Shown here piece by piece: positions 26,549-52,319 of a stretch of 64,000 nt of DNA. The position numbers and the translations under genes are program-made. Source of the stretch: Escherichia coli (GTDB lineage: Bacteria > Pseudomonadota > Gammaproteobacteria > Enterobacterales > Enterobacteriaceae); assembly GCF_003019035.1 (NCBI RefSeq), contig NZ_CP027447.1. One strand, written 5' to 3'. Below the pieces are notes generated by a model. The model ran no database searches, had not been told where the DNA came from, and saw only the letters and a list, made by a program, of their open reading frames with translations. Position 1 is the first letter of the stretch, and each line of letters opens with the position of its first letter.

Positions 26549-33395
<6,847 letters not shown>

Positions 33396-33504
33396 TGCCA
33401 CATTCCTTGTGTAAAGCCAGCCATTTTTTACGAGCACAGCAAAACTTTACCGCGCCCTAATACGACAAAAGCCCAGACTTTGCAGCCTGGACTTTTCAAT
33501 TCAA

Positions 33505-33530
33505 ACAAGGGAGATATCTCCCTTTTGGCA
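33505..33530 (-). terminator. Putative terminator after gyrA
   Basis: Perfect palindrome AGGGAGATATCTCCCT just past the gyrA stop, with T-rich flank. Confidence 0.5.
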
Positions 33531-33543
33531 TGAAGACGTAAAA

Positions 33544-36171
33544 TTATTCTTCTTCTGGCTCGTCGTCAACGTCCACTTCCGGAGCGATTTCATCGTCCCC
33601 TTCCGCGGCACTGCCGTCGATGGTATCCAGATCTTCCTCGTCAACCGGTTCAGCAACACGTTGCAGACCCACTACGTTTTCATCTTCCGCAGTACGGATG
33701 AGGATCACACCCTGGGTGTTACGGCCCACGATGCTGATTTCTGAAACGCGAGTACGTACCAGCGTACCGGCATCGGTGATCATCATGATCTGGTCGCAGT
33801 CATCTACCTGCACTGCGCCAACCACTAAACCGTTACGTTCGGTAACCTTGATGGAAATAACCCCTTTCGTCGCACGCGACTTGGTTGGGTATTCCGCCAC
33901 TGCGGTACGTTTACCATAACCGTTCTGCGTTGCGGTGAGGATTGCGCCATCACCACGAGGTACGATCAGAGAGACGACTTTATCGCCTTCGCCTAAACGA
34001 ATACCGCGAACACCGGTGGTGTTGCAGCCCATCGCACGGACAGAAGACTCTTTAAAGCGCACCACTTTACCTTCAGCGGAGAACAGCATTACTTCATCTT
34101 CGCCACTGGTCAGGTCAACGCCGATCAGCTCATCGCCTTCAACCAGTTTGATCGCCACTTTACCGGCAGTACGCAGACGGTTGAATTCGGTGAGGACGGT
34201 TTTCTTCACAGTTCCGTTAGCGGTCGCCATGAAGACTTTCACGCCTTCTTCAAACTCGGTCACTGGCAGGATCGCAGTGATACGTTCGTCTTGCTCCAGC
34301 GGCAGCAGGTTGACGATCGGACGACCGCGCGCGCCACGAGTAGCTTCTGGCAACTGGTAGACCTTCATCGAATAGACGCGACCACGGCTGGAGAAGCACA
34401 GAATATGGTCGTGGGTATTCGCCACCAGCAGTCGGTCGATAAAGTCTTCTTCTTTAATACGTGCGGCAGATTTACCTTTACCGCCACGACGCTGCGCTTC
34501 GTATTCAGAAAGCGGCTGATACTTCACGTAGCCCTGGTGAGAGAGCGTCACGACCACATCTTCCTGGGTGATCAGATCTTCCAGGTTGATGTCTGCGCTG
34601 TTGGCGGTGATTTCAGTACGACGTTTGTCACCGAACTGTTCACGAACCAGCTCCAGCTCTTCGCGGATCACTTCCATCAGACGATCGGCGCTACCAAGAA
34701 TACGCAACAGTTCCGCGATCTGATCCAGCAGCTCTTTGTATTCGTCGAGCAGTTTTTCGTGCTCAAGGCCGGTCAGTTTCTGCAGACGCAGATCCAGAAT
34801 CGCCTGAGCTTGCTGTTCGGTCAGGTAGTACAGACCATCGCGCACGCCGAACTCTGGCTCCAGCCATTCCGGACGCGCAGCATCGTCGCCAGCACGTTCC
34901 AGCATCGCGGCAACGTTGCCCAGCTGCCACGGATTAGCAACCAGCGCGGTTTTCGCTTCTGCAGGCGTCGGCGCATGACGGATCAGTTCGATGATCGGGT
35001 CAATGTTCGCCAGCGCCACGGCTAATGCTTCAAGGATATGAGCACGATCGCGAGCTTTACGCAGTTCGAAAATAGTACGACGGGTCACCACTTCACGGCG
35101 GTGACGAACAAACGCCGCGATGATGTCTTTCAGGTTCATGATCTTCGGCTGACCATGGTGCAATGCCACCATGTTAATACCGAAAGAAACCTGCAACTGG
35201 GTCTGGGAGTAGAGGTTGTTGAGCACCACTTCACCGACCGCATCGCGTTTCACTTCAATCACGATGCGCATACCGTCTTTGTCAGACTCGTCACGCAGCG
35301 CGCTGATACCTTCCACGCGTTTTTCTTTTACCAGTTCCGCAATCTTCTCGATCAGGCGCGCTTTGTTCACCTGATACGGAATTTCATGGACGATAATGGT
35401 TTCACGTCCGGTTTTGGCGTCAACTTCCACTTCAGCACGGGCGCGGATATATACCTTGCCGCGACCGGTACGGTAAGCTTCTTCAATACCGCGACGACCA
35501 TTAATGATTGCCGCCGTCGGGAAGTCCGGCCCAGGAATGTGTTCCATCAGCCCTTCAATGCTGATGTCTTCATCATCGATATACGCCAGACAACCGTTGA
35601 TAACTTCCGTCAGGTTGTGCGGCGGGATGTTGGTTGCCATACCTACGGCGATACCGGAGGAACCGTTCACCAGCAGGTTAGGAATTTTGGTTGGCATGAC
35701 GTCCGGAATTTTTTCCGTGCCGTCATAGTTATCAACGAAATCGACCGTCTCTTTTTCGAGATCGGCCATCAGTTCATGGGCAATTTTCGCCAGACGGATT
35801 TCCGTATAACGCATTGCCGCCGCAGAGTCGCCGTCGATGGAACCGAAGTTACCCTGACCGTCTACCAGCATGTAACGCAGCGAGAATGGCTGCGCCATAC
35901 GGACGATCGTGTCATAAACCGCCGAGTCACCATGGGGATGGTATTTACCGATTACGTCACCAACGACACGGGCAGATTTTTTATAGGCTTTGTTCCAGTC
36001 ATTGCCTAGTACGTTCATGGCGTAAAGTACGCGACGGTGTACCGGCTTCAGGCCATCTCGGACATCCGGCAGCGCACGGCCAACAATGACCGACATCGCA
36101 TAATCCAGATAGGAGCTCTTCAGCTCTTCCTCAATGTTGACCGGTGTAATTTCTCTCGCAAGGTCGCTCAT
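33544..36171 (-). CDS. gyrA: DNA gyrase subunit A
   Basis: 875-aa [50 protein letters not shown]...; QRDR reads [10 protein letters not shown] (Ser83 = TCG at 35925..35923, Asp87 = GAC at 35913..35911). Confidence 0.97.
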
Positions 36172-36215
36172 CTAACCGCTATCCCTCTACTGTATCCCGG
36201 ATTCAAAGGTCGGAG

Positions 36216-36221
36216 ATTATA
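36216..36221 (-). promoter_or_regulatory. Candidate gyrA -10 hexamer (TATAAT)
   Basis: Minus strand reads TATAAT about 45 bp upstream of the gyrA ATG; no mapped transcription start. Confidence 0.4.
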
Positions 36222-36429
36222 ACACAATCGCTTGCGGACGGGTAAACGTAATGCAGGCTTCCGGGCGCTGTAGATCTACTGCGTTTTACCCCACCGCCAG
36301 CACACATCGCGCTGGCGGTGAACGACAAAGGAACAAAGACCGCAACACGCTTCCTGTGCCTCAATAAACACCAGAAATAATGGCTATACTCGTCATACTT
36401 CAAGTTGCATGTGCTGCGTCTGCGGGTTA

Positions 36430-36598
36430 TTCGGCCCATCCATGGGCCTCACCCCTTACGGGGCCGCTGCAAGCAGCGTTCAAATCCGCTCCATGCGGAT
36501 TTGTCGCTCACCCCAGTCACTTACTTATGTAAGCTCCTTGGGATTCACTCGCTTGTCGCCTTCCTGCAACTCGAATTATTTAGAGTATATAAATCGCC
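36430..36598. repeat. ERIC-like (enterobacterial repetitive intergenic consensus) element
   Basis: Core at 36505..36548 is the reverse complement of GTGAATCCCaAGGAGCTTACATAAGTAAGTGACTGGGGTGAGCG, the conserved ERIC central inverted repeat; outer boundaries approximate. Confidence 0.7.
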
Positions 36599-36599
36599 G

Positions 36600-37802
36600 T
36601 TATTTGATCACATAGGCAAGATATTGTTGTACGATTTCATCGTTTAATTCCTGACCAAGCCCAGGCAACTCTGGCGCGACATAATAGCCATTCTCGGGTT
36701 GATAATCGTAAGTACAAAGTTCCCGAATACATGCTTTCATCGCATTGGTATGATGTTCATGAATAATAAAGTTAGGTATTGCAGTTTCCATATGCAGCGC
36801 CGCTACTGTTGAAACAGGCCCGCCACAAACATGTACCTGAACGGTTGTGTCATATATATTGGCATAATCACAAATTTTCTTTCCCTCTGTAATGCCACCA
36901 CAAAGACACAAATCAGGTTGAGCTACCGCAATTGATTGTTTTTCCAGTAAATCACGATATCCCCAGCGAGTATAAGAACGCTCACCTGTTGCTATCGGAA
37001 TCGATGTTGAACGGGCAACTTTCTGCATATTATCCGAATTTAATGGATGAATTGGCTCCTCATAGAGAAAAATACGATATTTCTCTATTGCTTTGGCAAA
37101 CTGGATCGCTGAATTTGTTCCTAGAAGAGAATGAATCTCTACAATAATATCAGCATCGTCGCCCATTGCTTCACGCATAGCGGCAATTCTTGTCTCGCCC
37201 ATTTTTAATTGTTCGGCCAGTAATAAGCCAGAGTAATTTCTATTTTTGTTCTGAAAGACACAATCGCCGCCATGCAGATCGATTTCAAGCGGATCAACTT
37301 TTATCGCATTATAACCTTCTGCAATAGCGGCACGCGCTGCCTCTGCATACTCTTCAGGCGTTACTAATATTTGCCTTTTTTCGCCCCAACCAAATTGTAA
37401 CTGACTGGCGTAAGTTCTCAATTTATCGTTAGTCTTTCCCCCCAGTAGTTGATAAACCGGCACGTTTAAATATTTACCTTTAATATCCCATAAGGCAATA
37501 TCAATAGCGCTCATACCTGCGTAAAAAACATTACCACCGCCCATTCCCCAAAATGTTTTCCTGAAGAGGAATTCCCAAATCTTCTCAATGTTCAACGGAT
37601 CTTCACCAATGATGAGAGGGGCTAAATCTCTGATAATACCAACACCAGATTTTGCACCTGCGCCATAGGCTAATCCTACTTCGCCAACACCACTTATTCC
37701 AGCATCGGTATTAACCCGAATAAGTACTGGATTATAAGAGGCCATAGTTTGATCTCTTTTTTTGAGTTCGCAGTCAAAAATTTCTACAGATGTAATCTTC
37801 AT
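36600..37802 (-). CDS. Enolase-superfamily dehydratase (mandelate racemase / galactonate dehydratase-like); substrate unknown
   Basis: 400 aa from the ATG at 37802 (GAGG Shine-Dalgarno 7 nt upstream; ORF track starts at 37814). Motifs ALWDIKGK, QLLGG, EEP, ATGER, QPDL, GGITE shared with DgoD/RhmD-type enzymes. Confidence 0.8.
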   Translation of the reverse strand: MKITSVEIFDCELKKRDQTMASYNPVLIRVNTDAGISGVGEVGLAYGAGAKSGVGIIRDLAPLIIGEDPLNIEKIWEFLFRKTFWGMGGGNVFYAGMSAIDIALWDIKGKYLNVPVYQLLGGKTNDKLRTYASQLQFGWGEKRQILVTPEEYAEAARAAIAEGYNAIKVDPLEIDLHGGDCVFQNKNRNYSGLLLAEQLKMGETRIAAMREAMGDDADIIVEIHSLLGTNSAIQFAKAIEKYRIFLYEEPIHPLNSDNMQKVARSTSIPIATGERSYTRWGYRDLLEKQSIAVAQPDLCLCGGITEGKKICDYANIYDTTVQVHVCGGPVSTVAALHMETAIPNFIIHEHHTNAMKACIRELCTYDYQPENGYYVAPELPGLGQELNDEIVQQYLAYVIK

Positions 37803-37814
37803 AAATAACCTCAT

Positions 37815-39143
37815 TTATTTAGCATGTGAAATAACATTGTCTTTCTGGGCGTTATCTTTTTTATTATCAATTTTCATTGATAACAAAATAGCTACGGCGA
37901 TAAAGCAAAGAATCGCCTCAACAATAAATATCCCCGTGGCTCCATAATGTGTAGAAACATAGCCAAGTGATTTATTGATCAGAAAACCACCCAAACTTGA
38001 ACAAGAGTTAATAAACGCAATACTGATTGCCAGGCCTGATGGTGAAAGTAAAGCTGAGGGTAAAGCCCAGTACGGACCGTAATAACTGAGAATGCCTACA
38101 CCGTATAATGTTAATCCCATCATGCGCAGCGTCATCGAAGGTACAAGTGCGATCATTAAAAAACCGCAACCTGCAACCAACATCGGTAGTGCGGCATGCC
38201 ATTTCCTTTCATTCTTTTTATCGGAATGCCATCCCCATAATGGCATACTGAACATCGCGAAAATAAACGGAATACTCATAATCAAACCGACATCGGTATC
38301 TGTGAAATCCGATGAAAATCCTTTAACCAACCCCGGTAACCAGTAATTTGCCGCCAACGCCGCTGCCTGAATAAACATATAAGCAAATGAGAGTTGTAGT
38401 AATACTGGATTTTTAATGATTGACAGAAAAGATGCATTTGTATTTTTATTTAATGCTGCGGCTTTTTCGTTATCAGAATTAAGTTTATCGACCAATGCGG
38501 TGACTTGCGATGGTGTAAGCCAGCGGGCTTTTTCCGGACGATCTGGCAGTAAATAAAAGGTCAGCGCCCCCAATAACACCGTAGGAATGCCTTCAATAGC
38601 AAAAAGCCAGCGCCATCCTTCATAGTTACCGGTATTCATATGTTCAATAATCCAACCAGACATTGGTGCCGCCAGCACAGATGCAACTGCGATTGATAAC
38701 ATAAAAAAGCTATTCACTTTTCCACGTTCACGCGCCGGGAACCAACATGCCAGGTAGTAAACCATGCCAGGGAAAAAACCCGCTTCAAATATTCCCAAAA
38801 AGACCCGAGCGAGCAATATATGCTGGGTGTCTTTGGCAAAGAAAATTAACGTTGTTACTGTTCCCCAACCAACAATAATGGCGCTAATCCATTTTCTTGC
38901 ACCTAACTTTTGCAATCCAATACTGCTCGGAATTTGAAAAATCAAATAGGACACAAAAAATATTGAAGATATATTAGCAAAATCCTCTGGAGTAATACCA
39001 AGGGATTCATTCATGCGTAAAGCGGCAAATCCGATGTTAACACGATCCATATAGTTAAAAAAATACAGAATAAATGCTAACGGAATAATCTTCCTTTTCA
39101 CAATAGAAATGGCGTCATACAAATCTTTCTGAGGACTGCTCAT
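37815..39143 (-). CDS. MFS transporter, anion:cation symporter family (sugar-acid type)
   Basis: 442-aa polytopic ORF; conserved DRxNIGFA and GIFEAGFFPG motifs as in RhmT/DgoT-type transporters; AAGGTG Shine-Dalgarno; 12-bp gap to the dehydratase gene. Confidence 0.8.
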   Translation of the reverse strand: MSSPQKDLYDAISIVKRKIIPLAFILYFFNYMDRVNIGFAALRMNESLGITPEDFANISSIFFVSYLIFQIPSSIGLQKLGARKWISAIIVGWGTVTTLIFFAKDTQHILLARVFLGIFEAGFFPGMVYYLACWFPARERGKVNSFFMLSIAVASVLAAPMSGWIIEHMNTGNYEGWRWLFAIEGIPTVLLGALTFYLLPDRPEKARWLTPSQVTALVDKLNSDNEKAAALNKNTNASFLSIIKNPVLLQLSFAYMFIQAAALAANYWLPGLVKGFSSDFTDTDVGLIMSIPFIFAMFSMPLWGWHSDKKNERKWHAALPMLVAGCGFLMIALVPSMTLRMMGLTLYGVGILSYYGPYWALPSALLSPSGLAISIAFINSCSSLGGFLINKSLGYVSTHYGATGIFIVEAILCFIAVAILLSMKIDNKKDNAQKDNVISHAK

Positions 39144-39380
39144 TTTGTTTCACCTTTTGTGCTTCAATGAATAAGAGTACTGCCCGAAGTGGATATTACG
39201 TAAAAAATAATCCAGTTCAAAAGGTGATGTGTTATATCTGATATATCAGCTTGATCATTGATTGAAACACTAAGCTACAACAATAAGATATATCATTTTT
39301 GTCATATCTGATATATTAGACACCTTCATTGATAAAATGATTACATATAATGGACCAGCAGCTTAATAAGGGGCAAAGGA

Positions 39381-40079
39381 ATGAGAGATAAAGCGAAACG
39401 TGACTTAAGTCACATATCAATTGAGATACCAAAATCCGTAACACAGGTCATCAAAGAAAAAATCAGGGATATGATAATTCATGGCGATCTCAGTCTTGGG
39501 CAACCGATAAGTGAAAATGAACTTTCGAATATCCTGGCGGTAAGTAAAACACCTATTCGTGAAGCTTTTATTTTACTTAGTCACAATGAAAATCTGATCA
39601 ATATCATTCCACGCAGCGGAACATTCGTTTTTTCCGTAACAGATAAAGATATTAATGACCTCATAAAAATGCGAGTAATTCTGGAGCAGGGTGCAATTCG
39701 TGAAGCAATGGAAAAGAATGAAAACAATGTCATCATTGAATTAAGTAGCATACTATCAAAATCAGCAAAAATTAATGCCGAGCGTGATACTCAGGCTTAT
39801 CTTAAATTGGATCATGATTTTCATTATGTGTTTGTTAAATACGCTGCTAATAAATACATCTCTCAGGCACACCAATTGATATCCGCACGTTTACTTGCTA
39901 TTCGTTATCGACTGGATTTCACTACGGAATATATTACCAATTCAAATCGTGGCCATGCCACTATTTTAGATATGCTAAAAAATAATAACGTTGAAGGTGT
40001 TTGTAATTTTATTACTCATCACGTAAGTAGTGGATTTACCGAGCGTGCACGAAAAATTCTCTCGTTATCTACACAGTAA
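39381..40079 (+). CDS. GntR-family transcriptional regulator (FadR/FCD-type C-terminal domain)
   Basis: 232-aa ORF; N-terminal winged HTH (ENELSNILAVSKTPIREAF); divergent from the MFS-dehydratase pair; AAGGGG Shine-Dalgarno 7 nt upstream. Confidence 0.8.
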   Translation: MRDKAKRDLSHISIEIPKSVTQVIKEKIRDMIIHGDLSLGQPISENELSNILAVSKTPIREAFILLSHNENLINIIPRSGTFVFSVTDKDINDLIKMRVILEQGAIREAMEKNENNVIIELSSILSKSAKINAERDTQAYLKLDHDFHYVFVKYAANKYISQAHQLISARLLAIRYRLDFTTEYITNSNRGHATILDMLKNNNVEGVCNFITHHVSSGFTERARKILSLSTQ

Positions 40080-40156
40080 AATGTGAATGAGTTTATAACA
40101 CTGGCACTTTTCACCTGCTATACTGCCCGACAACCTTTATAGACTCTTATGTAACA

Positions 40157-40879
40157 ATGAACACTGAAAATCTCCTTAAAAACAATAACGTAGACCACGA
40201 AGAGATCGCTAAATTTGAAGCCGTCGCCTCCCGCTGGTGGGATCTTGAAGGTGAGTTCAAACCGCTGCACCGCATTAACCCGCTGCGTCTGGGCTATATT
40301 GCCGAGCGTGCTGGCGGTTTATTTGGCAAAAAGGTGCTCGATGTCGGTTGTGGCGGCGGCATTCTGGCCGAGAGTATGGCGCGCGAAGGCGCGACGGTGA
40401 CCGGTCTGGATATGGGCTTTGAGCCATTGCAGGTGGCAAAGTTGCACGCGCTGGAAAGTGGCATTCAGGTAGAGTACGTGCAGGAAACCGTGGAAGAGCA
40501 CGCGGCAAAACATGCCGGGCAGTATGACGTGGTGACCTGCATGGAGATGCTGGAGCACGTGCCCGATCCGCAGTCAGTGGTCAGAGCCTGTGCGCAACTG
40601 GTGAAACCGGGCGGCGATGTCTTTTTCTCGACGCTTAACCGCAACGGCAAGTCATGGCTGATGGCGGTAGTCGGCGCAGAATATATTTTGCGCATGGTGC
40701 CTAAAGGTACACATGATGTGAAGAAGTTTATTAAACCGGCAGAATTGCTGGGCTGGGTGGATCAGACAAGCCTTAAAGAGCGGCATATGACTGGGCTGCA
40801 TTACAACCCGATCACTAATTCCTTTAAGCTCGGCCCCGGCGTGGATGTGAACTATATGCTGCATACGCAGAATAAGTGA
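40157..40879 (+). CDS. ubiG: UbiG, ubiquinone biosynthesis O-methyltransferase
   Basis: 240-aa ORF with SAM-binding [13 protein letters not shown] motif; N-terminus [16 protein letters not shown] differs from the recalled K-12 N-terminus, the rest is near-identical. Confidence 0.93.
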
Positions 40880-40884
40880 GGTTG

Positions 40885-41015
40885 TTGTTTGGATTCAGCC
40901 GACGACCGAGCCAAGCCTGATGCGACGCTTGCCGCGTCTTATCAGGCCTACAAATGCTCCCGTAGGCCAGATAAGGCGTTTACGCCGCATCCGGCAACAG
41001 TGCCGGTCAGACAGC
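40885..41015. repeat. REP/BIME palindromic units between convergent ubiG and yfaL
   Basis: gcctgatgcgacgcttgccgcgtcttatcaggcctacaa... / ggccagataaggcgtttacgccgcatccggc palindromes; spurious ORFs 40889..41236 and 40920..41114 lie in it. Confidence 0.7.
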
Positions 41016-41017
41016 GA

Positions 41018-44000
41018 TTACCATTTCACTGTCATCGACAAAAACCCTGCCGTCTGGGCAAAATCATCACTCCCTTTCTGCCACGCCACGCTACCACGCA
41101 GCGAAACTCGCTGACTGATATTGCCCGTTATTCCCACTTTTATTTCACCCCGTTGCTTCACCGCATCGTCACTGATAGTGCTGCCATCTTCTTCAATTTC
41201 CGTCGCATGGGGATCGTGATAATAATTCAGATCTAATGTTGGTATGACACCAACCGCGGTACGCCATTCGCTGTGTAAACCCAGCCGCGTTTGAATATCA
41301 TCACCCTGCGATTGTGACACCCGCGCATGGTTAGCAGCGGTGAAATCATCCTGCTGCACGCCCTGATAAATCACCTGCGCCTGTGGTTCAATCACCACTC
41401 CATGCCCCGGTAACCACTGATACCCGGCTTCCAGCGAGGCGATAATCCCCGATGAGTGGTAATGATCCGCGCCATCTTCATGTTCGGAAACATCATTGTT
41501 AAACCACGCGTATTGCAGCCAGCTATCCAGCCAGGCCCCCTGCTTCTGATTACCGTGCTGGAACCAGCTTGAGGTCAGACCAACGGCATAACCGTGGTTC
41601 TGGTTATCGGCGCGAGTTCCGGTCATATTCGAGCGGCTGTCGCCCTGGTTATCACTGTAGCCACCAACCGCCCCAAGCATCCACTCGCCATCCATGCCCC
41701 AGCGCCCGCTAAACAAGTCGCCGCTAAGCTGCACCGTAGAAGTGTCTTCATGCTGAGCCAGTTGCCCCGCTGCTGTGTAATGATAATCTCCGCCGATAAC
41801 ACGTAAATTCAGCGTCTGACCATCGCCACCAGCGTGATCGCGTCGCTCCATCACAAATGCCTGATTTGCCGCACGTAGGTTATTGAGATAGCCACCAACT
41901 TTGGCATTCAGCACCGGCTGGTAGGCAGGCGTAGGGGCTGGAGCCGGGTCGGGTGTTGGATCAGGATCCGGCGTAGGATCAGGATCTGGAGTCGGGTCTG
42001 GATCGGGCGGCGATGGTGGCGTTACTTCTTGCGATCGCAGATACCAGTCGTTGTTATCTTCCACCAGCGTGTAGTCATACGCTCCCATATTGACGTAGCC
42101 GCTGCCCGCCAGACTGAACTGCGCATTGTTTTGAAATTGCGTTGGATCGGCTGCGAAATCAACCACTTTAATGCCCGTAGATGTCGGCTCACCAATACCC
42201 GTAATGGGATTAATTACCACGGTCGTGTTGCCAGCAGTATTACCGTTCAACACCAGTTGGTCGCTTGCCGAGTCATCGCCGTTTAATTCGCTGTCGAGAA
42301 ACAACGTACCGCCACCGGTGTAATCACCGTTTACCGTGAGCGTGTCGCCAGCAACGCCATTTTGCAGACTGACAGCACCGGAAGTATTAGTTAGATCACC
42401 ATTGACCGTCACGTCTGAAAGATAAGTCAGGCTGTCAGTTTCAAGGTTGGTATTAAGCTCGCCTGTCAGCGTCACACCATCGGTGGCATTCACCAACGTA
42501 CCGTCGCCGCTAAACAGCGAGGCATCCAGCGCCTGGTTCGTATCCTGCTGCGTCAATCGCAACACAGTACCATCGGTTATGTCGATATCGCCGCCAGAGG
42601 TGGCATCGATTGAACGAATATCCTGATTTTGCCCGGTTTCAAAAACACCGTCTTCCCCCACCCACAGTGAAGAAACATAAGGAATAATATTCTCCGCTTC
42701 ACCTTTTAGCGTTCCGTCCTCCACACGTACCGCAGACGTCGCAGTGCCGCTGGCGGTCAACTCCAGCGTCCCGCCGCCACTTTTAGTCAACGTGCTTACG
42801 CTATCCAGTTGTTGCCCGGTACTATCCGCCATCAACCCGCCCCATTGCGTATCTACGCCATCCTCAACGTGTATTTCGCCATCAGCGCGCATTTCAATAT
42901 TCCTGCCCTGACCTGTTGTAGCCGAGCGAGTGTCAACATCAGTCGTCACATCCATTTCACTGTGTTGTTGGGGATCTGTGAAGATCACTGAACGGTTGTA
43001 ACTTGTGTCCCCCAATTGCGAATTATCGCTGACTTCAAGCGTACCGGAGGCGATTTGCGTATTACCGAGATAACCGTTGTTATTCGCCAGCGTTACGCGC
43101 TGATCCCCCGCATTAATGACGACATAAACGCCATTCTGGCTGGCATCACTGCCGCCAATATGTAAATCATCGCCACTGCTGATATCAACGACATCATTAC
43201 TACCAATCACTGTCCCCCCGCTGCCGCTGATTTGCAGACCGTCATTGTATGAGCTATCGCCATCCCAGGTGGTGAAATCAGAGAGATCCAATACTCCGCC
43301 ATTTAGCACGATCGATTGCGGATCGCTCTGCATTGCCCGTAAATCGGCCTGATTCCCCGCCAGCGACAATACGGCGTTATCTTCCACCACAATATCGCCG
43401 GTTAATGCCATCGACTGCGCCCCTGTCAGGAGATAGCTGCCATCTTGCGCTACCGTCAACTGTCCTTCACCCTGAATCGAGCCGGAAAAACCGCCCTGGT
43501 TTACGGTAACATTGCCGCCTGCGTCGATATTCAAAATGCCATTAGCAAAACCGGTTAATGAGTGCACAAACGTTTGTTGTGTATTGCCAACATTCAGTTC
43601 TGCCTGATACTCAGAATGAACAGTGCTGCCGACCATCAGACCAAAGCAATCCTGCGGATCGCTCTGACAGTGCGTGTCGCCGACATTCATTAACTCATCG
43701 CTGCGCCCCAACGTCACCTCGCCATTCTGGATACTCATCTCGCCGGTAAACGCATTATTGTCGGCATTGAGGACTAACTCTCCCGCTCCCTCTTTAACGA
43801 TGACTCCCGTTCCGGCAAGAGAATCAATCGCGCCATCGTTGCTGGTATTGCCTATTACCAGCGTTTTATCGGCGGCAATGTTAAATTCAGCCACACTATG
43901 ACCGATATACATAAAGCCCCCCGCCGCTGCCGTCGCCGAATGGTCATATCCCGAGGCGCTGTTATTTTCATCAATCATCACACCATTGTTTTGGTCATAA

Positions 44001-44782
44001 TTATCATCAACAGAAATATCAATAAGATACGGGGATGTGGTGCTGCTGGTATAAATTGCTCCGCCATAACCTTCTGCATAGTTATTGGTAAAGGAGGTAT
44101 TATTAATTATCGTTTTTCCTGAAAGATGTGTGTTATCCGTACTATTATCCGTAACATCAATGGCACCGCCGTCCCCATCACTATAGCTGGTTGATGTATA
44201 TGCCTGATTATTATCAAAAATGACATCACTTAAATAAATATCATTATTGATAGAATAAATAGCGCCACCTTTACCATCATTGGCGATATTATTCGCAAAT
44301 ATTGCATTAGTGATATTTAAATCCATATCACCGGCATCGTTTGTTCCCGCAGAATAGATTGCTCCGCCATAGCCTCCTGCAACGTTACTGTCGAAAATAA
44401 CATTCGCAAGATTTATCATTGAGTTTTCTTTAGCAAAGATAGCTCCGCCATTATTATATTCGCCACTAATCGAGTTATTAGCAAACAGGGTCATCCCTGT
44501 TTCATTTTGTGGTGATATCGTAAATTCAGCACTTTGCTGCAAAAATACGGCGCCACCGCTGGCATTATTGGCCATACCCGAAAAAATCACCCATTGCCCA
44601 TCGGCGATGCTCCAGTCCTGCGTAATGCCTGAAAGGCTTTGCCTGCTGGCCTGACAACTCGCTTTGATATCATATCCCTGGCATGAATCCAAAACCTCCG
44701 CGACACTGTTAACAGAGAAAAGAGATGCAATCATTGACGGGAGTAAAGATAAATACTCCTTGCGTAGAAAAATAATCCGCAT
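41018..44782 (-). CDS. yfaL: YfaL-type autotransporter adhesin (type Va secretion)
   Basis: 1254-aa ORF; N-terminal signal, Gly/Asn/Thr-rich passenger repeats, proline-rich PPSPPDPDPTPDPDPTPDPDPTPDPAPAPTP linker, C-terminal beta-barrel ending ...MTVKW. Confidence 0.88.
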   Translation of the reverse strand: MRIIFLRKEYLSLLPSMIASLFSVNSVAEVLDSCQGYDIKASCQASRQSLSGITQDWSIADGQWVIFSGMANNASGGAVFLQQSAEFTISPQNETGMTLFANNSISGEYNNGGAIFAKENSMINLANVIFDSNVAGGYGGAIYSAGTNDAGDMDLNITNAIFANNIANDGKGGAIYSINNDIYLSDVIFDNNQAYTSTSYSDGDGGAIDVTDNSTDNTHLSGKTIINNTSFTNNYAEGYGGAIYTSSTTSPYLIDISVDDNYDQNNGVMIDENNSASGYDHSATAAAGGFMYIGHSVAEFNIAADKTLVIGNTSNDGAIDSLAGTGVIVKEGAGELVLNADNNAFTGEMSIQNGEVTLGRSDELMNVGDTHCQSDPQDCFGLMVGSTVHSEYQAELNVGNTQQTFVHSLTGFANGILNIDAGGNVTVNQGGFSGSIQGEGQLTVAQDGSYLLTGAQSMALTGDIVVEDNAVLSLAGNQADLRAMQSDPQSIVLNGGVLDLSDFTTWDGDSSYNDGLQISGSGGTVIGSNDVVDISSGDDLHIGGSDASQNGVYVVINAGDQRVTLANNNGYLGNTQIASGTLEVSDNSQLGDTSYNRSVIFTDPQQHSEMDVTTDVDTRSATTGQGRNIEMRADGEIHVEDGVDTQWGGLMADSTGQQLDSVSTLTKSGGGTLELTASGTATSAVRVEDGTLKGEAENIIPYVSSLWVGEDGVFETGQNQDIRSIDATSGGDIDITDGTVLRLTQQDTNQALDASLFSGDGTLVNATDGVTLTGELNTNLETDSLTYLSDVTVNGDLTNTSGAVSLQNGVAGDTLTVNGDYTGGGTLFLDSELNGDDSASDQLVLNGNTAGNTTVVINPITGIGEPTSTGIKVVDFAADPTQFQNNAQFSLAGSGYVNMGAYDYTLVEDNNDWYLRSQEVTPPSPPDPDPTPDPDPTPDPDPTPDPAPAPTPAYQPVLNAKVGGYLNNLRAANQAFVMERRDHAGGDGQTLNLRVIGGDYHYTAAGQLAQHEDTSTVQLSGDLFSGRWGMDGEWMLGAVGGYSDNQGDSRSNMTGTRADNQNHGYAVGLTSSWFQHGNQKQGAWLDSWLQYAWFNNDVSEHEDGADHYHSSGIIASLEAGYQWLPGHGVVIEPQAQVIYQGVQQDDFTAANHARVSQSQGDDIQTRLGLHSEWRTAVGVIPTLDLNYYHDPHATEIEEDGSTISDDAVKQRGEIKVGITGNISQRVSLRGSVAWQKGSDDFAQTAGFLSMTVKW
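41930..42012. repeat. Short imperfect tandem DNA repeat inside yfaL encoding the (D/P)(P/T) linker
   Basis: Repeated ggatc(a/c/t)gg(a/c)gt(a/c/g)gg-type units visible across about 80 bp. Confidence 0.7.
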
Positions 44783-45315
44783 ATTAATCTGACCATCATT
44801 TTCTATAAGACGGCATATTTAATCGCATTATACGATATGGGTTATTTTTCTTTTGTAAATTGTTCAACCCGGTGCAATGGCTATTTTGTTATTATTTCAT
44901 GAATAATATCAGTGCGTCATAATTCAAGTTAATCACCTTAAGGGATATCAGTTATGTTTAAACTGAATTAAAGTAATGAATAATTTTCTTATAATATAAG
45001 GTAAATTAACAAAATGGCTTCGCATTTAACAACAACCGAAGAGAAAACAACCATTTCGACATCAACAATCGCTTACATTCGCTTATATATTGACCATAAC
45101 TGATACATCAGATTATGTGATGACTCGTGCTTAGATCAATTTTTGCAATCATTAGCCAAAAGATTAATAAACCATCTATATCAATTTATCTAACCTATTC
45201 TTCCGTTCAAGAAATCGCCGAACAGTTATTTTTAACAAATTTTTCTCTTCCCATTGACTTTCCCGGACACCTTGTCTGACCTAAGGTGCGCGAAAGCCAC
45301 TTTTTCCTTCCTGAG

Positions 45316-45324
45316 TTATCCACA
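45316..45324 (+). promoter_or_regulatory. DnaA box in the nrdAB promoter region
   Basis: Exact TTATCCACA consensus. Confidence 0.7.
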
Positions 45325-45353
45325 AAGTTATGCACTTGCAAGAGGGCCATTTT

Positions 45354-45400
45354 CACACTATCTTGCAGTGAATCCCAAACATACCCCCTATATATAGTGT
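45354..45400 (+). promoter_or_regulatory. Pair of NrdR boxes in the nrdAB promoter
   Basis: CACACTATCTTGCAGTG and CCCCTATATATAGTGT, partial palindromes of the acaCwAtATaTwGtgt type, centres about 31 bp apart and about 90 bp upstream of the nrdA ATG. Confidence 0.65.
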
Positions 45401-45477
45401 TCTAAGCAGCTTCCCTCACTACAGGTAGTCTGCATGAAACTATTGCGGAAAGAATTCCAAAAACAGGTACGACATAC

Positions 45478-47763
45478 ATGAATCAGAATCTGCTGGTGAC
45501 AAAGCGCGACGGTAGCACAGAGCGCATCAATCTCGACAAAATCCATCGCGTTCTGGATTGGGCGGCAGAAGGACTGCATAACGTTTCGATTTCCCAGGTC
45601 GAACTGCGCTCCCACATTCAGTTTTATGACGGTATCAAGACCTCTGACATCCACGAAACCATTATCAAGGCTGCCGCAGACCTGATCTCCCGTGATGCGC
45701 CGGATTATCAGTATCTCGCCGCGCGCCTGGCGATCTTCCACCTGCGTAAAAAAGCCTACGGCCAGTTTGAGCCGCCTGCGCTGTACGACCACGTGGTGAA
45801 AATGGTCGAGATGGGCAAATACGATAATCATCTGCTGGAAGACTACACGGAAGAAGAGTTCAAGCAGATGGACACGTTTATCGATCACGACCGTGATATG
45901 ACCTTCTCTTATGCTGCCGTTAAGCAGCTGGAAGGCAAATATCTGGTGCAGAACCGTGTGACCGGCGAAATCTACGAAAGCGCCCAGTTCCTTTATATTC
46001 TGGTTGCCGCGTGCCTGTTCTCGAACTACCCGCGTGAAACGCGCCTGCAATACGTGAAGCGTTTTTACGACGCGGTTTCCACATTTAAAATTTCGCTGCC
46101 GACGCCAATCATGTCCGGCGTGCGTACCCCGACTCGTCAGTTCAGCTCCTGCGTACTGATCGAGTGCGGCGACAGCCTGGATTCCATCAACGCCACCTCC
46201 AGCGCGATTGTTAAATACGTTTCCCAGCGTGCCGGGATCGGCATCAACGCCGGGCGTATTCGTGCGCTGGGTAGCCCGATTCGCGGTGGCGAAGCGTTCC
46301 ATACCGGTTGTATTCCGTTCTATAAGCATTTCCAGACAGCGGTGAAATCCTGCTCTCAGGGCGGTGTGCGTGGCGGTGCGGCTACGCTGTTCTACCCGAT
46401 GTGGCATCTGGAAGTTGAAAGCCTGCTGGTGTTGAAAAACAACCGTGGGGTGGAAGGCAACCGCGTGCGTCATATGGACTACGGGGTACAAATCAACAAA
46501 CTGATGTATACCCGTCTGCTGAAAGGTGAAGATATCACTCTGTTCAGCCCGTCCGACGTACCGGGGTTGTACGACGCGTTCTTCGCCGATCAGGAAGAGT
46601 TTGAACGCCTGTATACCAAATATGAGAAAGACGACAGCATCCGCAAGCAGCGTGTGAAAGCCGTTGAGCTGTTCTCGCTGATGATGCAGGAACGTGCGTC
46701 TACCGGTCGTATCTATATTCAGAACGTTGACCACTGCAATACCCATAGCCCGTTTGATCCGGTCATCGCGCCAGTGCGCCAGTCTAACCTGTGCCTGGAA
46801 ATCGCCCTGCCGACCAAACCGCTGAACGACGTCAACGACGAGAACGGTGAAATCGCGCTGTGTACGCTGTCTGCTTTCAACCTGGGCGCAATTAACAGCC
46901 TGGATGAACTGGAAGAGCTGGCAATTCTGGCGGTTCGCGCACTCGACGCACTGCTGGATTATCAGGATTACCCGATCCCGGCCGCTAAACGTGGAGCGAT
47001 GGGGCGTCGTACGCTGGGTATTGGTGTGATCAACTTCGCTTACTACCTGGCGAAGCACGGTAAACGCTACTCCGACGGCAGCGCCAACAACCTGACGCAT
47101 AAAACCTTCGAAGCCATTCAGTATTACCTGCTGAAAGCGTCTAATGAGCTGGCGAAAGAGCAAGGCGCGTGCCCGTGGTTTAACGAAACCACTTACGCGA
47201 AAGGGATCCTGCCGATCGATACCTATAAGAAAGATCTGGATGCCATCGCTAATGAGCCGCTGCATTACGACTGGGAAGCACTGCGTGAGTCAATCAAAAC
47301 GCACGGCCTGCGTAACTCCACGCTTTCTGCTCTGATGCCGTCAGAGACTTCTTCGCAGATCTCTAACGCCACTAACGGTATTGAACCGCCGCGTGGTTAC
47401 GTCAGCATCAAAGCGTCGAAAGACGGTATTCTGCGCCAGGTGGTGCCGGACTACGAGCATCTGCACGACGCCTATGAGCTGCTGTGGGAAATGCCGGGTA
47501 ACGATGGCTATCTGCAACTGGTGGGTATCATGCAGAAATTTATCGATCAGTCGATCTCTGCTAACACCAACTACGATCCATCACGTTTCCCGTCAGGAAA
47601 AGTGCCGATGCAGCAGTTGCTGAAAGACCTGCTCACCGCCTACAAATTCGGGGTCAAAACGCTGTATTATCAGAACACCCGTGACGGTGCTGAAGACGCA
47701 CAAGACGATCTGGTGCCGTCAATCCAGGACGATGGCTGCGAAAGCGGCGCATGTAAGATCTGA
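45478..47763 (+). CDS. nrdA: Ribonucleoside-diphosphate reductase 1 alpha subunit
   Basis: 761-aa ORF MNQNLLVTKRDGSTERINLDKIHRVLDWAAEGL... Confidence 0.97.
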   Translation: MNQNLLVTKRDGSTERINLDKIHRVLDWAAEGLHNVSISQVELRSHIQFYDGIKTSDIHETIIKAAADLISRDAPDYQYLAARLAIFHLRKKAYGQFEPPALYDHVVKMVEMGKYDNHLLEDYTEEEFKQMDTFIDHDRDMTFSYAAVKQLEGKYLVQNRVTGEIYESAQFLYILVAACLFSNYPRETRLQYVKRFYDAVSTFKISLPTPIMSGVRTPTRQFSSCVLIECGDSLDSINATSSAIVKYVSQRAGIGINAGRIRALGSPIRGGEAFHTGCIPFYKHFQTAVKSCSQGGVRGGAATLFYPMWHLEVESLLVLKNNRGVEGNRVRHMDYGVQINKLMYTRLLKGEDITLFSPSDVPGLYDAFFADQEEFERLYTKYEKDDSIRKQRVKAVELFSLMMQERASTGRIYIQNVDHCNTHSPFDPVIAPVRQSNLCLEIALPTKPLNDVNDENGEIALCTLSAFNLGAINSLDELEELAILAVRALDALLDYQDYPIPAAKRGAMGRRTLGIGVINFAYYLAKHGKRYSDGSANNLTHKTFEAIQYYLLKASNELAKEQGACPWFNETTYAKGILPIDTYKKDLDAIANEPLHYDWEALRESIKTHGLRNSTLSALMPSETSSQISNATNGIEPPRGYVSIKASKDGILRQVVPDYEHLHDAYELLWEMPGNDGYLQLVGIMQKFIDQSISANTNYDPSRFPSGKVPMQQLLKDLLTAYKFGVKTLYYQNTRDGAEDAQDDLVPSIQDDGCESGACKI

Positions 47764-50077: not shown

Positions 50078-51268
50078 TTAATGAATTTCTTTTGCCGCTA
50101 CTAGCATGACACCGCTTTTGCCCTTCATTTGCAGCGCATAGACTCCACCAGCCACTACCACTAATAGTGCACCCAGCAGATAAATCATTCGGTAGCCAGT
50201 ATGTGCAACCATCATCCCCATCACACAGGCTCCCAGCGCCAGGCCTGCATCCATCGCATTGAAGAAGAGGGAGTTTGCGACACCGATTTTATGCGGTTCC
50301 ACTGAACTGATAATCTGCGTCTGAAAAACTGGCGTCACGGAACCATACCCGATACCAATCAACGCGCCAGAAACAACCATCATTATGCTTCCCTGGGTGT
50401 AGCCGAGAACCACCAGTCCAACCGTAAAGAACACAAGGCAAGGGTAAACCACATATTTCGGTCCTTTTTTGTCGCAGACATTGCCGGTAAAGGTACGGCA
50501 GATCATCAGGAAGATAGCGTAGCAAAGCAGGAAATTACTGGCTGCCGACATCAGGTTAAGTTCGCGTGCATAAAGCGCCAGAAAAGCAGAAACCCCGGCA
50601 TACGAAAAGGTCATAAAAAAGGTGACCATCGCAAATGGCAACGCCGCGCGATCGAACATGGCGGCGAAGCCCATTTTCGGCGTTGAACCATCAGCATGGC
50701 TGATAACCGGCGGCACTGTCATAATCAGCGACAGAATAATCCCCACCGCTGCCACGCCGGTGCATAACCAGAAAGCCATATTAAAGGCCTCCCAGCGCGC
50801 CATATTCAGGCCAATCCACGGCCCGACCACCATTGCCAGCCCCATTGCCAGAGAGAAAAAACTGATGCCCTCCCCACGTCGGGAGGCCGGGATCAGCCGC
50901 GCGGAAATCGTTCCTTTTACCGTAGTGATAACCCCGAAGGTAATACCATGAAGCACCCGAATAAAAAGCAGTGATTCAATTGAGTGGCAAAAAGGATACA
51001 GCGCAGTGACCACCAAGAAGGCCAGAGAAGAGAGCCCCAGAATAGTTTTATTCGAATATTTGCCCACCCATTGCCCGGCAAAGGGGCGAATAACAATGGC
51101 GGCAATTAAAAATAAAGTCACCAACAAACCTGCTTTATCAGGAGAGGCATGCAAGCGGTCTGAGATATAAATTGGCAACAATGTTAGTAAAACATAAAAG
51201 ACGAAGAAAATAATAAAACTGATGATGGTTATTGCCCAAAAATCCTTCGTCCATAACTTCTCTTTCAT
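50078..51268 (-). CDS. MFS transporter (12-TM, efflux-type)
   Basis: 396-aa polytopic ORF MKEKLWTKDFWAITIISFIIFFVF...; divergent from the adjacent LysR gene. Confidence 0.8.
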   Translation of the reverse strand: MKEKLWTKDFWAITIISFIIFFVFYVLLTLLPIYISDRLHASPDKAGLLVTLFLIAAIVIRPFAGQWVGKYSNKTILGLSSLAFLVVTALYPFCHSIESLLFIRVLHGITFGVITTVKGTISARLIPASRRGEGISFFSLAMGLAMVVGPWIGLNMARWEAFNMAFWLCTGVAAVGIILSLIMTVPPVISHADGSTPKMGFAAMFDRAALPFAMVTFFMTFSYAGVSAFLALYARELNLMSAASNFLLCYAIFLMICRTFTGNVCDKKGPKYVVYPCLVFFTVGLVVLGYTQGSIMMVVSGALIGIGYGSVTPVFQTQIISSVEPHKIGVANSLFFNAMDAGLALGACVMGMMVAHTGYRMIYLLGALLVVVAGGVYALQMKGKSGVMLVAAKEIH

Positions 51269-51419
51269 ACCCTACCGCCTGTCAGGATGACGCACGCAGA
51301 CAACACTCCCGTTACTGCGGTTGCGTCAAATTGTGATGTACTTTGCAGAACAGAAGTATAAATGGCGGCATGCTATTAGAGAAATTAATCGTTTTAATAT
51401 TATTGATTAGCAAACTCTA

Positions 51420-52319
51420 ATGACTCTTACCCAAATAAATTCTTTACTCGCCGTGCTGGATTACGGTGGCTTTACTGAAGCCAGCAAGCGATTGTTCATG
51501 ACGCAGTCGGCGGTAAGTCAGGCAATTGCTGCCCTCGAACAAGAACTTGGCGTGAATATACTGTTACGCGATCGCCGTAAAGCTATACAACTGACCTCTG
51601 CAGGTCACCGCATTATGCATCATCTGCGCGCCATTAATCGGGAAGTGAACGCAGTAAAAGAGATAGCCGAGCAGGAAAAGCAGAACCCTCAAAGAACGCT
51701 GAGACTTGGTTGTTTCCCCAGCGTCTGCGCCTGTATCTTACCGGCTGTGATTCGCTACTTTGAAATTCATCATCCGAATATAAAAATTATTCCTTTTGAG
51801 GAAAATAGCACAGCGATTATTGATTCCCTTCAGAATGAATCCATTGATGCCGGTTTTGTTCATTTTCCGGTGAGCGGAATGTACTCCGTGCCCATTTATC
51901 AGGATAAATTCACCGTAGTGTTACCGCCCAACCATGCTCTGGCAAAAAACAGCACTATTACAGTGGAAGAGTTAATGGGTGAACCATTAATTATTAGTAA
52001 AGGACGCTATGAATTAAGCATTATGGCACTATTTAAAGAAAAGAATATTACCCCACAGATAAAATATGAATTTAATCACCCGGATACAGCGATCAGTTTT
52101 ATTCGACAGGGATTAGGCATCGCCTTATTACCAGAGTTAACGCTGAAAACCATTGCAGATGAATTGTGTTCCGTTCCTCTCGAACCAACCTTCTATCGAC
52201 AGATTTCGTTGCTGACTAAAGAAAAGCCGGTAGAAGGCAGTCCACTGTTTTTACTACAAATGTGCACAGAACAATTAGTGGAGAGTGGAAAATTTGATAT
52301 GAGACAGGATGGCGCATGA
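51420..52319 (+). CDS. yfaH: LysR-family transcriptional regulator (full-length counterpart of the K-12 yfaH fragment)
   Basis: 299-aa ORF with N-terminal HTH (FTEASKRLFMTQSAVSQAIAALE) and LysR substrate-binding domain. Confidence 0.8.
   Translation: MTLTQINSLLAVLDYGGFTEASKRLFMTQSAVSQAIAALEQELGVNILLRDRRKAIQLTSAGHRIMHHLRAINREVNAVKEIAEQEKQNPQRTLRLGCFPSVCACILPAVIRYFEIHHPNIKIIPFEENSTAIIDSLQNESIDAGFVHFPVSGMYSVPIYQDKFTVVLPPNHALAKNSTITVEELMGEPLIISKGRYELSIMALFKEKNITPQIKYEFNHPDTAISFIRQGLGIALLPELTLKTIADELCSVPLEPTFYRQISLLTKEKPVEGSPLFLLQMCTEQLVESGKFDMRQDGA

Follow-up and report, generated by a model that had tools for sequence, protein, structure and literature searches.

Within Escherichia coli, two systems are close to the locus described here. 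In the dgoRKADT operon a GntR/FCD repressor is combined with DgoT, an anion:cation symporter of the major facilitator superfamily (MFS), and with DgoD, a dehydratase of the enolase superfamily; the operon also has its own kinase and aldolase. The L-rhamnonate cluster rhmRDTA (yfaXWVU), which lies in the same chromosomal neighbourhood in K-12, likewise combines an acid-sugar dehydratase of the enolase superfamily with an MFS transporter and a regulator; this regulator is of the IclR type, and the cluster includes an aldolase. A parallel in chromosomal arrangement is the mutS-rpoS region, where a small gene block without mobility genes stands at a core junction in some E. coli lineages and in Salmonella, and not in K-12. 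We analysed a stretch of 64,000 nucleotides of the E. coli contig NZ_CP027447.1 (assembly GCF_003019035.1), referred to below as the window, in which a three-gene islet with the logic of dgo stands between the core genes gyrA and ubiG. With a probability of roughly 0.8, we read this interval (36172-40156) as a compact, self-contained catabolic module for the repressor-controlled import and dehydration of an acid sugar, carried on an old, derived insertion allele.

The dgo families are the closest NCBIfam families for both the islet enzyme and the islet transporter, whereas the trio is without the kinase and the aldolase of dgo. In the L-rhamnonate dehydratase family of rhm, the islet dehydratase reaches only 125 bits, against a cut-off of 393. 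Compared with the mutS-rpoS block, locus and genes differ, and here outgroups show the short allele to be the ancestral one. In published lists the Salmonella genes STM2273, STM2274 and STM2275 appear as dehydratase, MFS transporter and regulator, respectively. The islet is an accessory catabolic module of an ordinary kind, annotated by now in many genomes, and the Salmonella form of its enzyme already has crystal structures.

An AT-rich three-gene islet between gyrA and ubiG

The core flanks of the islet are gyrA on the left (33544..36171, minus strand) and ubiG on the right (40157..40879, plus strand), recognised from their open reading frames (ORFs) and from the names given by the Prokaryotic Genome Annotation Pipeline (PGAP) in the SCU-301 record, which is 100% identical to the window. 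With the gyrA start (on the complement) at 36171 and that of ubiG at 40157, the interval measures 3,985 bp, compared to 146 bp in a K-12-derived genome. These figures match the original prediction, which had been made from the letters of this stretch and had given roughly 150 bp for K-12. The three genes that it had placed at 36600..37802, 37815..39143 and 39381..40079 were also borne out by the ORFs, by the PGAP names (MR/MLE-family protein, MFS transporter and GntR family regulator) and by NCBIfam matches that concur with these names for all three ORFs.

The base composition of the islet departs from that of its host. In 500-bp steps, the fraction of guanine plus cytosine (GC) is 0.34-0.43 over 36500-40250, compared to about 0.52 on both sides, and the module as a whole has 38.8% GC against 51.3% in the remaining window. 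At third codon positions (GC3) the three genes have values of 0.28-0.37, against a mean of 0.56 (sd 0.05) in 37 other long ORFs of the window (z = -3.8 to -5.5). The interval had been described as more AT-rich than the flanking core genes; this is true of 36500-40250 and not of the leftmost 430 bp or so (36172-36599, next to gyrA), which consist of old spacer, a hairpin and an enterobacterial repetitive intergenic consensus (ERIC) repeat. The foreign unit is about 3.45 kb long.

The predicted lack of mobility genes was confirmed: there is no integrase or transposase ORF in the interval, which holds just the three annotated genes and no further ORF above 80 amino acids (aa). Furthermore, we found no tRNA within 30000-46000 and no terminal direct or inverted repeats of the islet. 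No convincing target-site duplication or junction microhomology that could date from the original insertion was seen.

The dehydratase and the transporter

The second gene of the leftward pair (36600..37802, minus strand) encodes a 400-aa dehydratase of the enolase superfamily (MR/MLE; GalD/ManD-like), the ortholog of STM2273. Over its full length the protein is 92% identical to PDB entries 4E6M and 2GL5, both entitled 'putative dehydratase'. Pfam finds the two-domain architecture, MR_MLE_N (PF02746) plus MR_MLE_C (PF13378), in the Salmonella ortholog (92% identical) as well as in every close homolog. The motifs E222-I-H224, E248/E249, E274, D297 and H324 occur in the expected order, as read from the motifs without structural superposition, and we take their catalytic roles (metal ligands, acid/base) to be those of GalD/ManD-type enzymes.

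The best NCBIfam match of the dehydratase is galactonate dehydratase (PRK14017) at 248.9 bits, below the cut-off of 311. It scores 239.1 bits in the gluconate/galactonate dehydratase family (cut-off 750) and 203.6 bits in the ManD (D-mannonate dehydratase) family (cut-off 550), again below both. After the Salmonella ortholog, the closest structures (2O56, 2OX4, 2POZ and others) score 274-498 bits; these are structural-genomics entries of the enolase superfamily, all deposited as 'putative dehydratase' or 'putative mandelate racemase', and give no lead to the islet substrate. The genes of distant homologs adjoin either anion-symporter or tripartite ATP-independent periplasmic (TRAP) transporters and GntR/FCD regulators, or sugar/polyol dehydrogenases, and these neighbourhoods point to a substrate class only, an organic acid or sugar acid, and to no single compound.

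The first gene of this two-gene operon (37815..39143, minus strand) encodes the 442-aa MFS transporter, ortholog of STM2274 with 88.9% aa identity to the Salmonella protein. It is of the anion:cation symporter type and resembles DgoT. It matches the D-galactonate transporter subfamily TIGR00893 at 269.7 bits (cut-off 395) and, with about the same score, HpaX at 270.7 bits (cut-off 615). The only solved structure that it matched is E. coli DgoT, 6E9N, and in this alignment the YxDR and GIFEA motifs are kept (YMDRVN versus YVDRAN in DgoT, and GIFEAGFFP versus GIFEAPAFP). In DgoT, the Asp-Arg pair in transmembrane helix 1 and the Glu in transmembrane helix 4 serve proton coupling and carboxylate binding. 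Because both the enzyme (248.9 versus 311 bits) and the transporter fall short of the galactonate cut-offs, the islet substrate is probably not D-galactonate; the assignment of a substrate class, an acid sugar, is reasonably supported.

A GntR/FCD regulator and its divergent promoter

The third gene (39381..40079, plus strand) encodes a GntR-family regulator of 232 aa with an FCD ligand domain, the ortholog of STM2275. NCBIfam matches span residues 11-218, and Pfam GntR (PF00392) and FCD (PF07729) are found on its 98%-identical cluster representative and on the Salmonella ortholog; the closest structures are also GntR/FCD proteins. The regulator has 87.4% aa identity to a 231-aa Salmonella form, with a conserved N-terminus.

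Between the transporter and regulator genes lies an AT-rich divergent promoter region (39144..39380; 34-36% GC in the GC scan) with patchy conservation in Salmonella. Two candidate GntR operators were recognised in it from their repetition and conservation: ATATCTGATATATCAG at 39234..39249, which includes the perfect palindrome CTGATATATCAG, and ATATCTGATATATTAG at 39304..39319. These putative operators (ATATCTGATATATYAG sites) form a direct repeat 70 bp apart. Salmonella has both 16-mers unchanged, although the sequence around them has diverged. In the 64-kb window the 16-mer has just these two exact copies, compared to 0.01 expected, and related motifs stand upstream of similar gene trios in an enterobacterial contig (L047), Budvicia and Morganella. 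A promoter scan showed no enrichment over shuffles, and we found no convincing terminator after the dehydratase gene.

We propose that the GntR/FCD repressor (39381-40079) is transcribed divergently from the two-gene operon (39143-37815, 37802-36600) and would sit on the two conserved 16-bp palindromic sites in the shared promoter, from which the substrate or a derivative would release it. The MFS protein, as a proton-coupled organic-anion symporter, would then bring in an acid sugar (an aldonate-type hydroxy-carboxylate). The dehydratase, presumed to be Mg-dependent, would turn this into a 2-keto-3-deoxy acid, to be taken over by a housekeeping kinase and aldolase encoded elsewhere. The candidate operator sequence is provided by this analysis, and finding the substrate of an enzyme with two crystal structures would add one more carbon source that separates Salmonella and some E. 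coli from K-12.

The Salmonella ortholog and the age of the islet

Contigs of Salmonella enterica agree with the window in gene order and orientation (ubiG, a GntR/FCD regulator, an MFS transporter, an MR/MLE dehydratase, gyrA, rcsC), and a PGAP-annotated Salmonella record bears out the gene names. These loci, like those of the outgroups below, were reached through protein-cluster and exact-protein contig look-ups; a scan of genome contigs with the dehydratase gave only relatives of 78% identity or less and no E. coli or Salmonella locus, which made it unusable for mapping across the Enterobacteriaceae. The 90%-identity protein clusters of the dehydratase and of the transporter each contain Salmonella enterica proteins too, and aa identity to Salmonella is 92% for the dehydratase, 89% for the MFS protein and 87% for the regulator. 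Genes, order and flanking genes are the same, and both junctions have derived features in common, namely AATGCA at the left one and CACCTGCTATACTGCC with ATGAACACTGAAAA at the right one; the islet is the ortholog, at the same site, of STM2273-STM2275.

The Salmonella LT2 locus is alike in its operator-like sites and in the position of an ERIC-like repeat, and its module is also low in GC (41% versus 53% outside). It differs by about 20% in nucleotide sequence. In E. coli the islet is a minority allele, whereas in Salmonella it is found in S. enterica subsp. enterica and not in the subsp. arizonae loci examined; moreover, the E. coli islet allele alters the first 11 ubiG codons.

Divergence from Salmonella is core-like. 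At the nucleotide level the islet genes of the window are 79-82% identical to those of Salmonella, gyrA is 86% and ubiG 79% identical. By the method of Nei and Gojobori, synonymous divergence (dS) is 1.5-2.3 for the islet genes and 0.7-2.3 for rcsB, rcsC, gyrA, ubiG, nrdA and nrdB. Nonsynonymous divergence (dN) is 0.046-0.072 for the islet genes against 0.004-0.072 for these six core neighbours, and dN/dS is about 0.03 (0.032 for the dehydratase) against 0.004-0.073. By this core-like divergence the islet is ancient: the E. coli and Salmonella copies parted about when the genera did, which excludes a recent transfer between them.

The wider idea that this strain, or ancestors close to it, acquired the islet recently by horizontal transfer, with Salmonella or a different donor as the source, would fit an AT-rich islet that is absent in most E. 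coli and shares its gene set with Salmonella. It is nevertheless very improbable, in view of an identity to Salmonella of only 79-82% with synonymous sites saturated as in the flanking core genes, of differences up to 1.7% among E. coli copies that also sit in differing flanking backgrounds, and of the lack of a closer donor among the proteins searched, where the next relatives have identities of 87% and 78%. The case shows that an islet which is AT-rich and lacks mobility genes need not be a recent import, but can be an old allele travelling by homologous recombination.

Which allele is ancestral

In four islet-less enterobacterial lineages gyrA and ubiG are neighbours, separated by 146-184 bp; the source of one of these lineages gives it as Atlantibacter hermannii. 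The K-12 spacer aligns over its whole length (about 121 nt) with three of the islet-less spacers, at 82%, 65% and 60% identity, and the alignment takes in the promoter-like TATACT of ubiG, its GGAG ribosome site and its MNAEK start. A short spacer of the ancestral form is likewise seen on contigs whose UbiG protein its source attributes to S. enterica subsp. arizonae; the gyrA of these contigs matches S. enterica gyrA at 96.5% identity. The islet-type flanks, by comparison, are 38-47% identical to three outgroup spacers and 49-55% to the K-12 spacer, and 67% identical between E. coli and Salmonella. Since the K-12 spacer is orthologous to those of four islet-less genera and of S. enterica subsp. 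arizonae, the short spacer is ancestral and the islet allele a derived insertion, which accords with the word 'inserted' of the original prediction.

A first reading, drawn from the core-like divergence, had the islet as ancestral and lost in K-12; it was dropped when the outgroup and arizonae spacers were seen to match the K-12 form. Under this explanation the islet would go back to the ancestor that E. coli and Salmonella share, and the short spacer of K-12 would be a deletion remnant in most E. coli. Apart from the divergence, it could call on an ERIC-like sequence at the same place in both genera and on the fact that deletion does occur, as in strain WB61 (see below). We consider it quite unlikely, for the K-12 spacer aligns from end to end with those of the islet-less genera and arizonae, and the promoter, leader and first codons of ubiG are among the aligned parts, while it is only about 50% identical to the islet-type flanks, and K-12 is without a true deletion scar such as WB61 shows.

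The same combination of transporter, dehydratase and GntR/FCD regulator was found at other sites. In the enterobacterium L047 it has 72.6% nucleotide identity to the islet and lies between yhjC-like and yhjD-like genes; the similarity ends exactly at the three genes, and the flanks are unrelated. The trio also stands alone in Budvicia, Morganella and Caballeronia. Because it recurs at different sites in these four, the three-gene unit is a travelling cassette over long time spans. In Morganella morganii (contig L034, 6853-10570) it lies in a stretch of 38-39% GC with phage-type integrase and AlpA-like genes near, the only context with mobility genes that we found. This context and the different chromosomal sites across lineages would be expected if the islet had been carried by a classical mobile element (an integrative island, say, or a transposon) that later lost its mobility genes. 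The gyrA-ubiG site, however, has no integrase, transposase, tRNA or terminal direct or inverted repeat, and the exact end of the L047 similarity at the three genes also speaks against such cargo; we think this origin unlikely, if somewhat less so than an islet that was ancestral and lost.

Distribution, variation and loss in E. coli

The whole interval is present in 140 of 5,426 complete E. coli genomes (about 2.6%, or about 1 in 40). It is missing in the other 97.4%, as in the K-12-derived genome, in agreement with the original prediction of its absence from K-12; the islet is thus neither common in E. coli nor, by its GC3, core-like in codon usage. Every carrier has a single chromosomal copy between gyrA and ubiG, 98.8-100% identical to the window, and no copy is on a plasmid. 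The carriers come from humans, poultry, pigs, cattle, wildlife and water.

Two kinds of database match stood apart from these. Three Salmonella 'plasmid' matches of about 500 kb at 92% identity were rejected as plasmid carriage: the one inspected (NZ_CP148876.1) carries gyrA, rcsC, nrdA and ubiG, and the three PLSDB records, which are single-cell assemblies, look like chromosomal pieces filed as plasmids. A 444-bp contig attributed to Terrisporobacter petrolearius (NZ_JAHZMO010000189.1) is 99% identical to the dehydratase and is probably enterobacterial contamination of that assembly.

Seven carrier loci, including that of the window, were compared in detail. Pairwise differences in the islet are 0.1-1.7%. 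The islet genes have a proportion of synonymous differences (pS) of 2-5% and a ratio of nonsynonymous to synonymous proportions (pN/pS) of 0.05-0.13 (dN/dS is 0.08 for the dehydratase within E. coli), and all three ORFs are full length in six of the seven. The E. coli copies are under purifying selection.

All copies examined have identical junctions, yet their backgrounds are mixed. A34 and 2014C-3061 have a K-12-like gyrA (0.3-0.7% different), and 2014C-3061 is without the ato operon, as is O157:H7; A22 has several flanking protein alleles in common with the B2 strain NC101. Islet status is uncoupled from the alleles of gyrA and from those of ubiG past codon 11. Identical junctions together with shuffled flanking alleles suggest that homologous recombination in gyrA and ubiG carries the islet, as an allele, from one E. 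coli lineage to another. The mechanism of acquisition had earlier been called not evident; recombination in the flanking core genes would be the simplest one, and it needs no mobility genes.

Partial matches to the interval occur in only two of the complete genomes, and one of these is WB61. This strain has islet-type flanks on both sides of a 143-bp interval in which GGGCGCTGTA is joined directly to CTGCTATACTGCC, with a microhomology of at most 4 bp at the deletion junction. In five flanking segments, about 14 kb in total, it shows 0.00% divergence from the carrier MS1718. Because the islet-type flanks are kept and the flanks do not differ from those of MS1718, WB61 is a recent deletion of the islet. 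MS1718 with the trio and WB61 without it form a natural near-isogenic pair for phenotyping.

Points that weigh against the module reading

Several observations count against an old, self-contained catabolic module. The enzyme stays under every curated isofunctional NCBIfam cut-off and no family gives its substrate, and our literature search, which found no functional study, assay result, assigned function or account of a gyrA-ubiG islet, provided no function assignment for the trio. No kinase or aldolase accompanies the trio in any context, so that the fate of the product is assumed, and operators and promoters are candidates picked from sequence. On the historical side, the case for recombinational spread is deduced from patterns of junctions and flanking alleles. 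In addition, GC3 of the islet is still 0.28-0.41 in both hosts despite saturated synonymous change, and both genera hold both alleles although the islet alleles have diverged like core genes. The latter may reflect ancient recombinational exchange or a very long-lived polymorphism, which the data reached do not distinguish. A tentative and rather doubtful suggestion is that the short and the islet alleles have coexisted or been exchanged in Escherichia and Salmonella since about the split of the genera, under niche-dependent selection for an undescribed substrate specificity.

The integrity of the genes is a further point. PGAP labels the regulator (39337-40079) 'frameshifted' in every E. coli copy examined, and in strain AF3 the transporter gene is frameshifted. 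With the low carrier frequency and AT-rich DNA that is likely to be silenced by H-NS, this could mean that in E. coli the islet is in decay, a group of silent or degenerating pseudogenes that no longer has a function. We give that explanation little credence, about as little as the loss of an ancestral islet. The full-length ORFs in six of seven loci and the low pN/pS stand against it, and the 'frameshift' seems to be measured against a 294-aa form of the regulator, reaching into the promoter region, that a PGAP-annotated Salmonella record contains; the flag presumably takes this form as its reference. The start codon of the 232-aa ORF is homologous to that of the 231-aa Salmonella call, the ORF has its own AAGGGG ribosome site, and the homologs found measure 220-231 aa. 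We treat the regulator as intact despite the flag because both domains are covered, a Shine-Dalgarno sequence of its own is present and the length is like that of its homologs. A label given to all E. coli copies examined exposes a systematic annotation problem.

Spacer elements and junctions

The gyrA sequence of the window is 97.8% identical in nucleotides to K-12 and 85.7% to Salmonella, and its 5' end is E. coli-typical up to the junction. Next to it, the gyrA leader and core promoter (36172..36226, minus strand) are common to all alleles, with 2 mismatches to K-12 in 55 nt before the alignment breaks. Homology to K-12 ends at 36226/36227, just upstream of TGTGTTATAAT (the reverse complement of 36216-36226), which we take, by eye, to be a candidate extended -10-like element of gyrA; it resumes in ubiG at about codon 11. 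The adjoining 36227..36255 (ending in GGGTAAACGTAATGCA) can be aligned to Salmonella and outgroup spacers through GGTAAAC..AATGCA and is the left remnant of the ancestral gyrA-ubiG spacer in a diverged, islet-type form.

Between this remnant and the dehydratase gene there are two repeats. The first is a perfect 10-bp inverted repeat, CACCGCCAGC / GCTGGCGGTG, with a 9-nt loop and no T-run after it (36292..36320); a repeat search found it in all islet-bearing E. coli examined, with a loop 3 nt shorter in A22. The second (36385..36589) has terminal inverted repeats at 36385-36409 and 36565-36589 and an internal insert of about 79 bp (~36425-36503). The classic ERIC2 and ERIC1R primer sequences match 36505-36526 and 36527-36548 with 0 and 1 mismatch, where 0 chance matches are expected, and by these matches the element is recognised as ERIC. 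Of two sub-threshold Rfam matches in the window, one falls on this repeat; both were treated as chance.

The ERIC repeat is a nested insertion polymorphism among the islet strains, as seen in the loci L036-L041, and makes the spacer downstream of the dehydratase gene vary in length. Spacers of 224/225 bp have no ERIC and those of 347/350 bp a plain ERIC, whereas 428 bp (this window) corresponds to ERIC with the insert of about 79 bp and 499 bp to a second internal insert. In Salmonella, too, part of an ERIC-like sequence stands at this place.

At the right end, the islet-type region upstream of ubiG (40080..40156, plus strand) is about 67% identical to the Salmonella islet allele and 43-55% to empty-type spacers. 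It stands in the place of the ancestral ubiG promoter and leader, and a promoter-like match in it gives a predicted -10-like hexamer, TATACT with a TG extension, whose last base is 40124. When aligned to K-12 and to WB61, the diverged haplotype has its right end in ubiG itself, whose first 11 codons (40157..40189, plus strand) are islet-type; from nt 34 on, ubiG is 96.1% identical to K-12 in nucleotides. The usual UbiG start MNAEKSPVNHN is replaced, giving an N-terminus that is unique among 120 UbiG cluster representatives, and the ATGAACACTGAAAA in this start is common to Salmonella. Codons 5-13 of the islet-type ubiG (40170-40194) are 80% identical over 25 nt to 39970-39994, a stretch close to the 3' end of the GntR gene 200 bp upstream (LLKNNNV versus MLKNNNV). 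This resemblance may reflect a short templated conversion that created the odd UbiG N-terminus, or chance in A-rich DNA.

Other loci in the window

Between inaA and glpQ (50078-52319) the window has a second small accessory pair, made up of an MFS transporter gene on the minus strand and, on the plus strand, a LysR regulator gene with a GC3 of 0.41. It is intact in the window, ECCNB12-2, AF3, MS1718, WB61 and O157:H7; only pseudogene fragments of it are found in K-12, A34 and 2014C-3061, and it is absent in A22 and NC101. A pair similar to it follows yfaE in S. enterica subsp. arizonae, and in the outgroup L051 an MFS gene follows yfaE; at this site, therefore, K-12 seems to hold the degraded state. 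At 26549-31168 there is an intact yfaS-type alpha-2-macroglobulin ORF of 1,539 aa, which has an internal stop in the K-12-derived record. A further AT-rich stretch (43750-45250, GC 0.30-0.43) takes in the 5' end of yfaL together with the spacer between yfaL and nrdA; other strains have ypaB annotated there.

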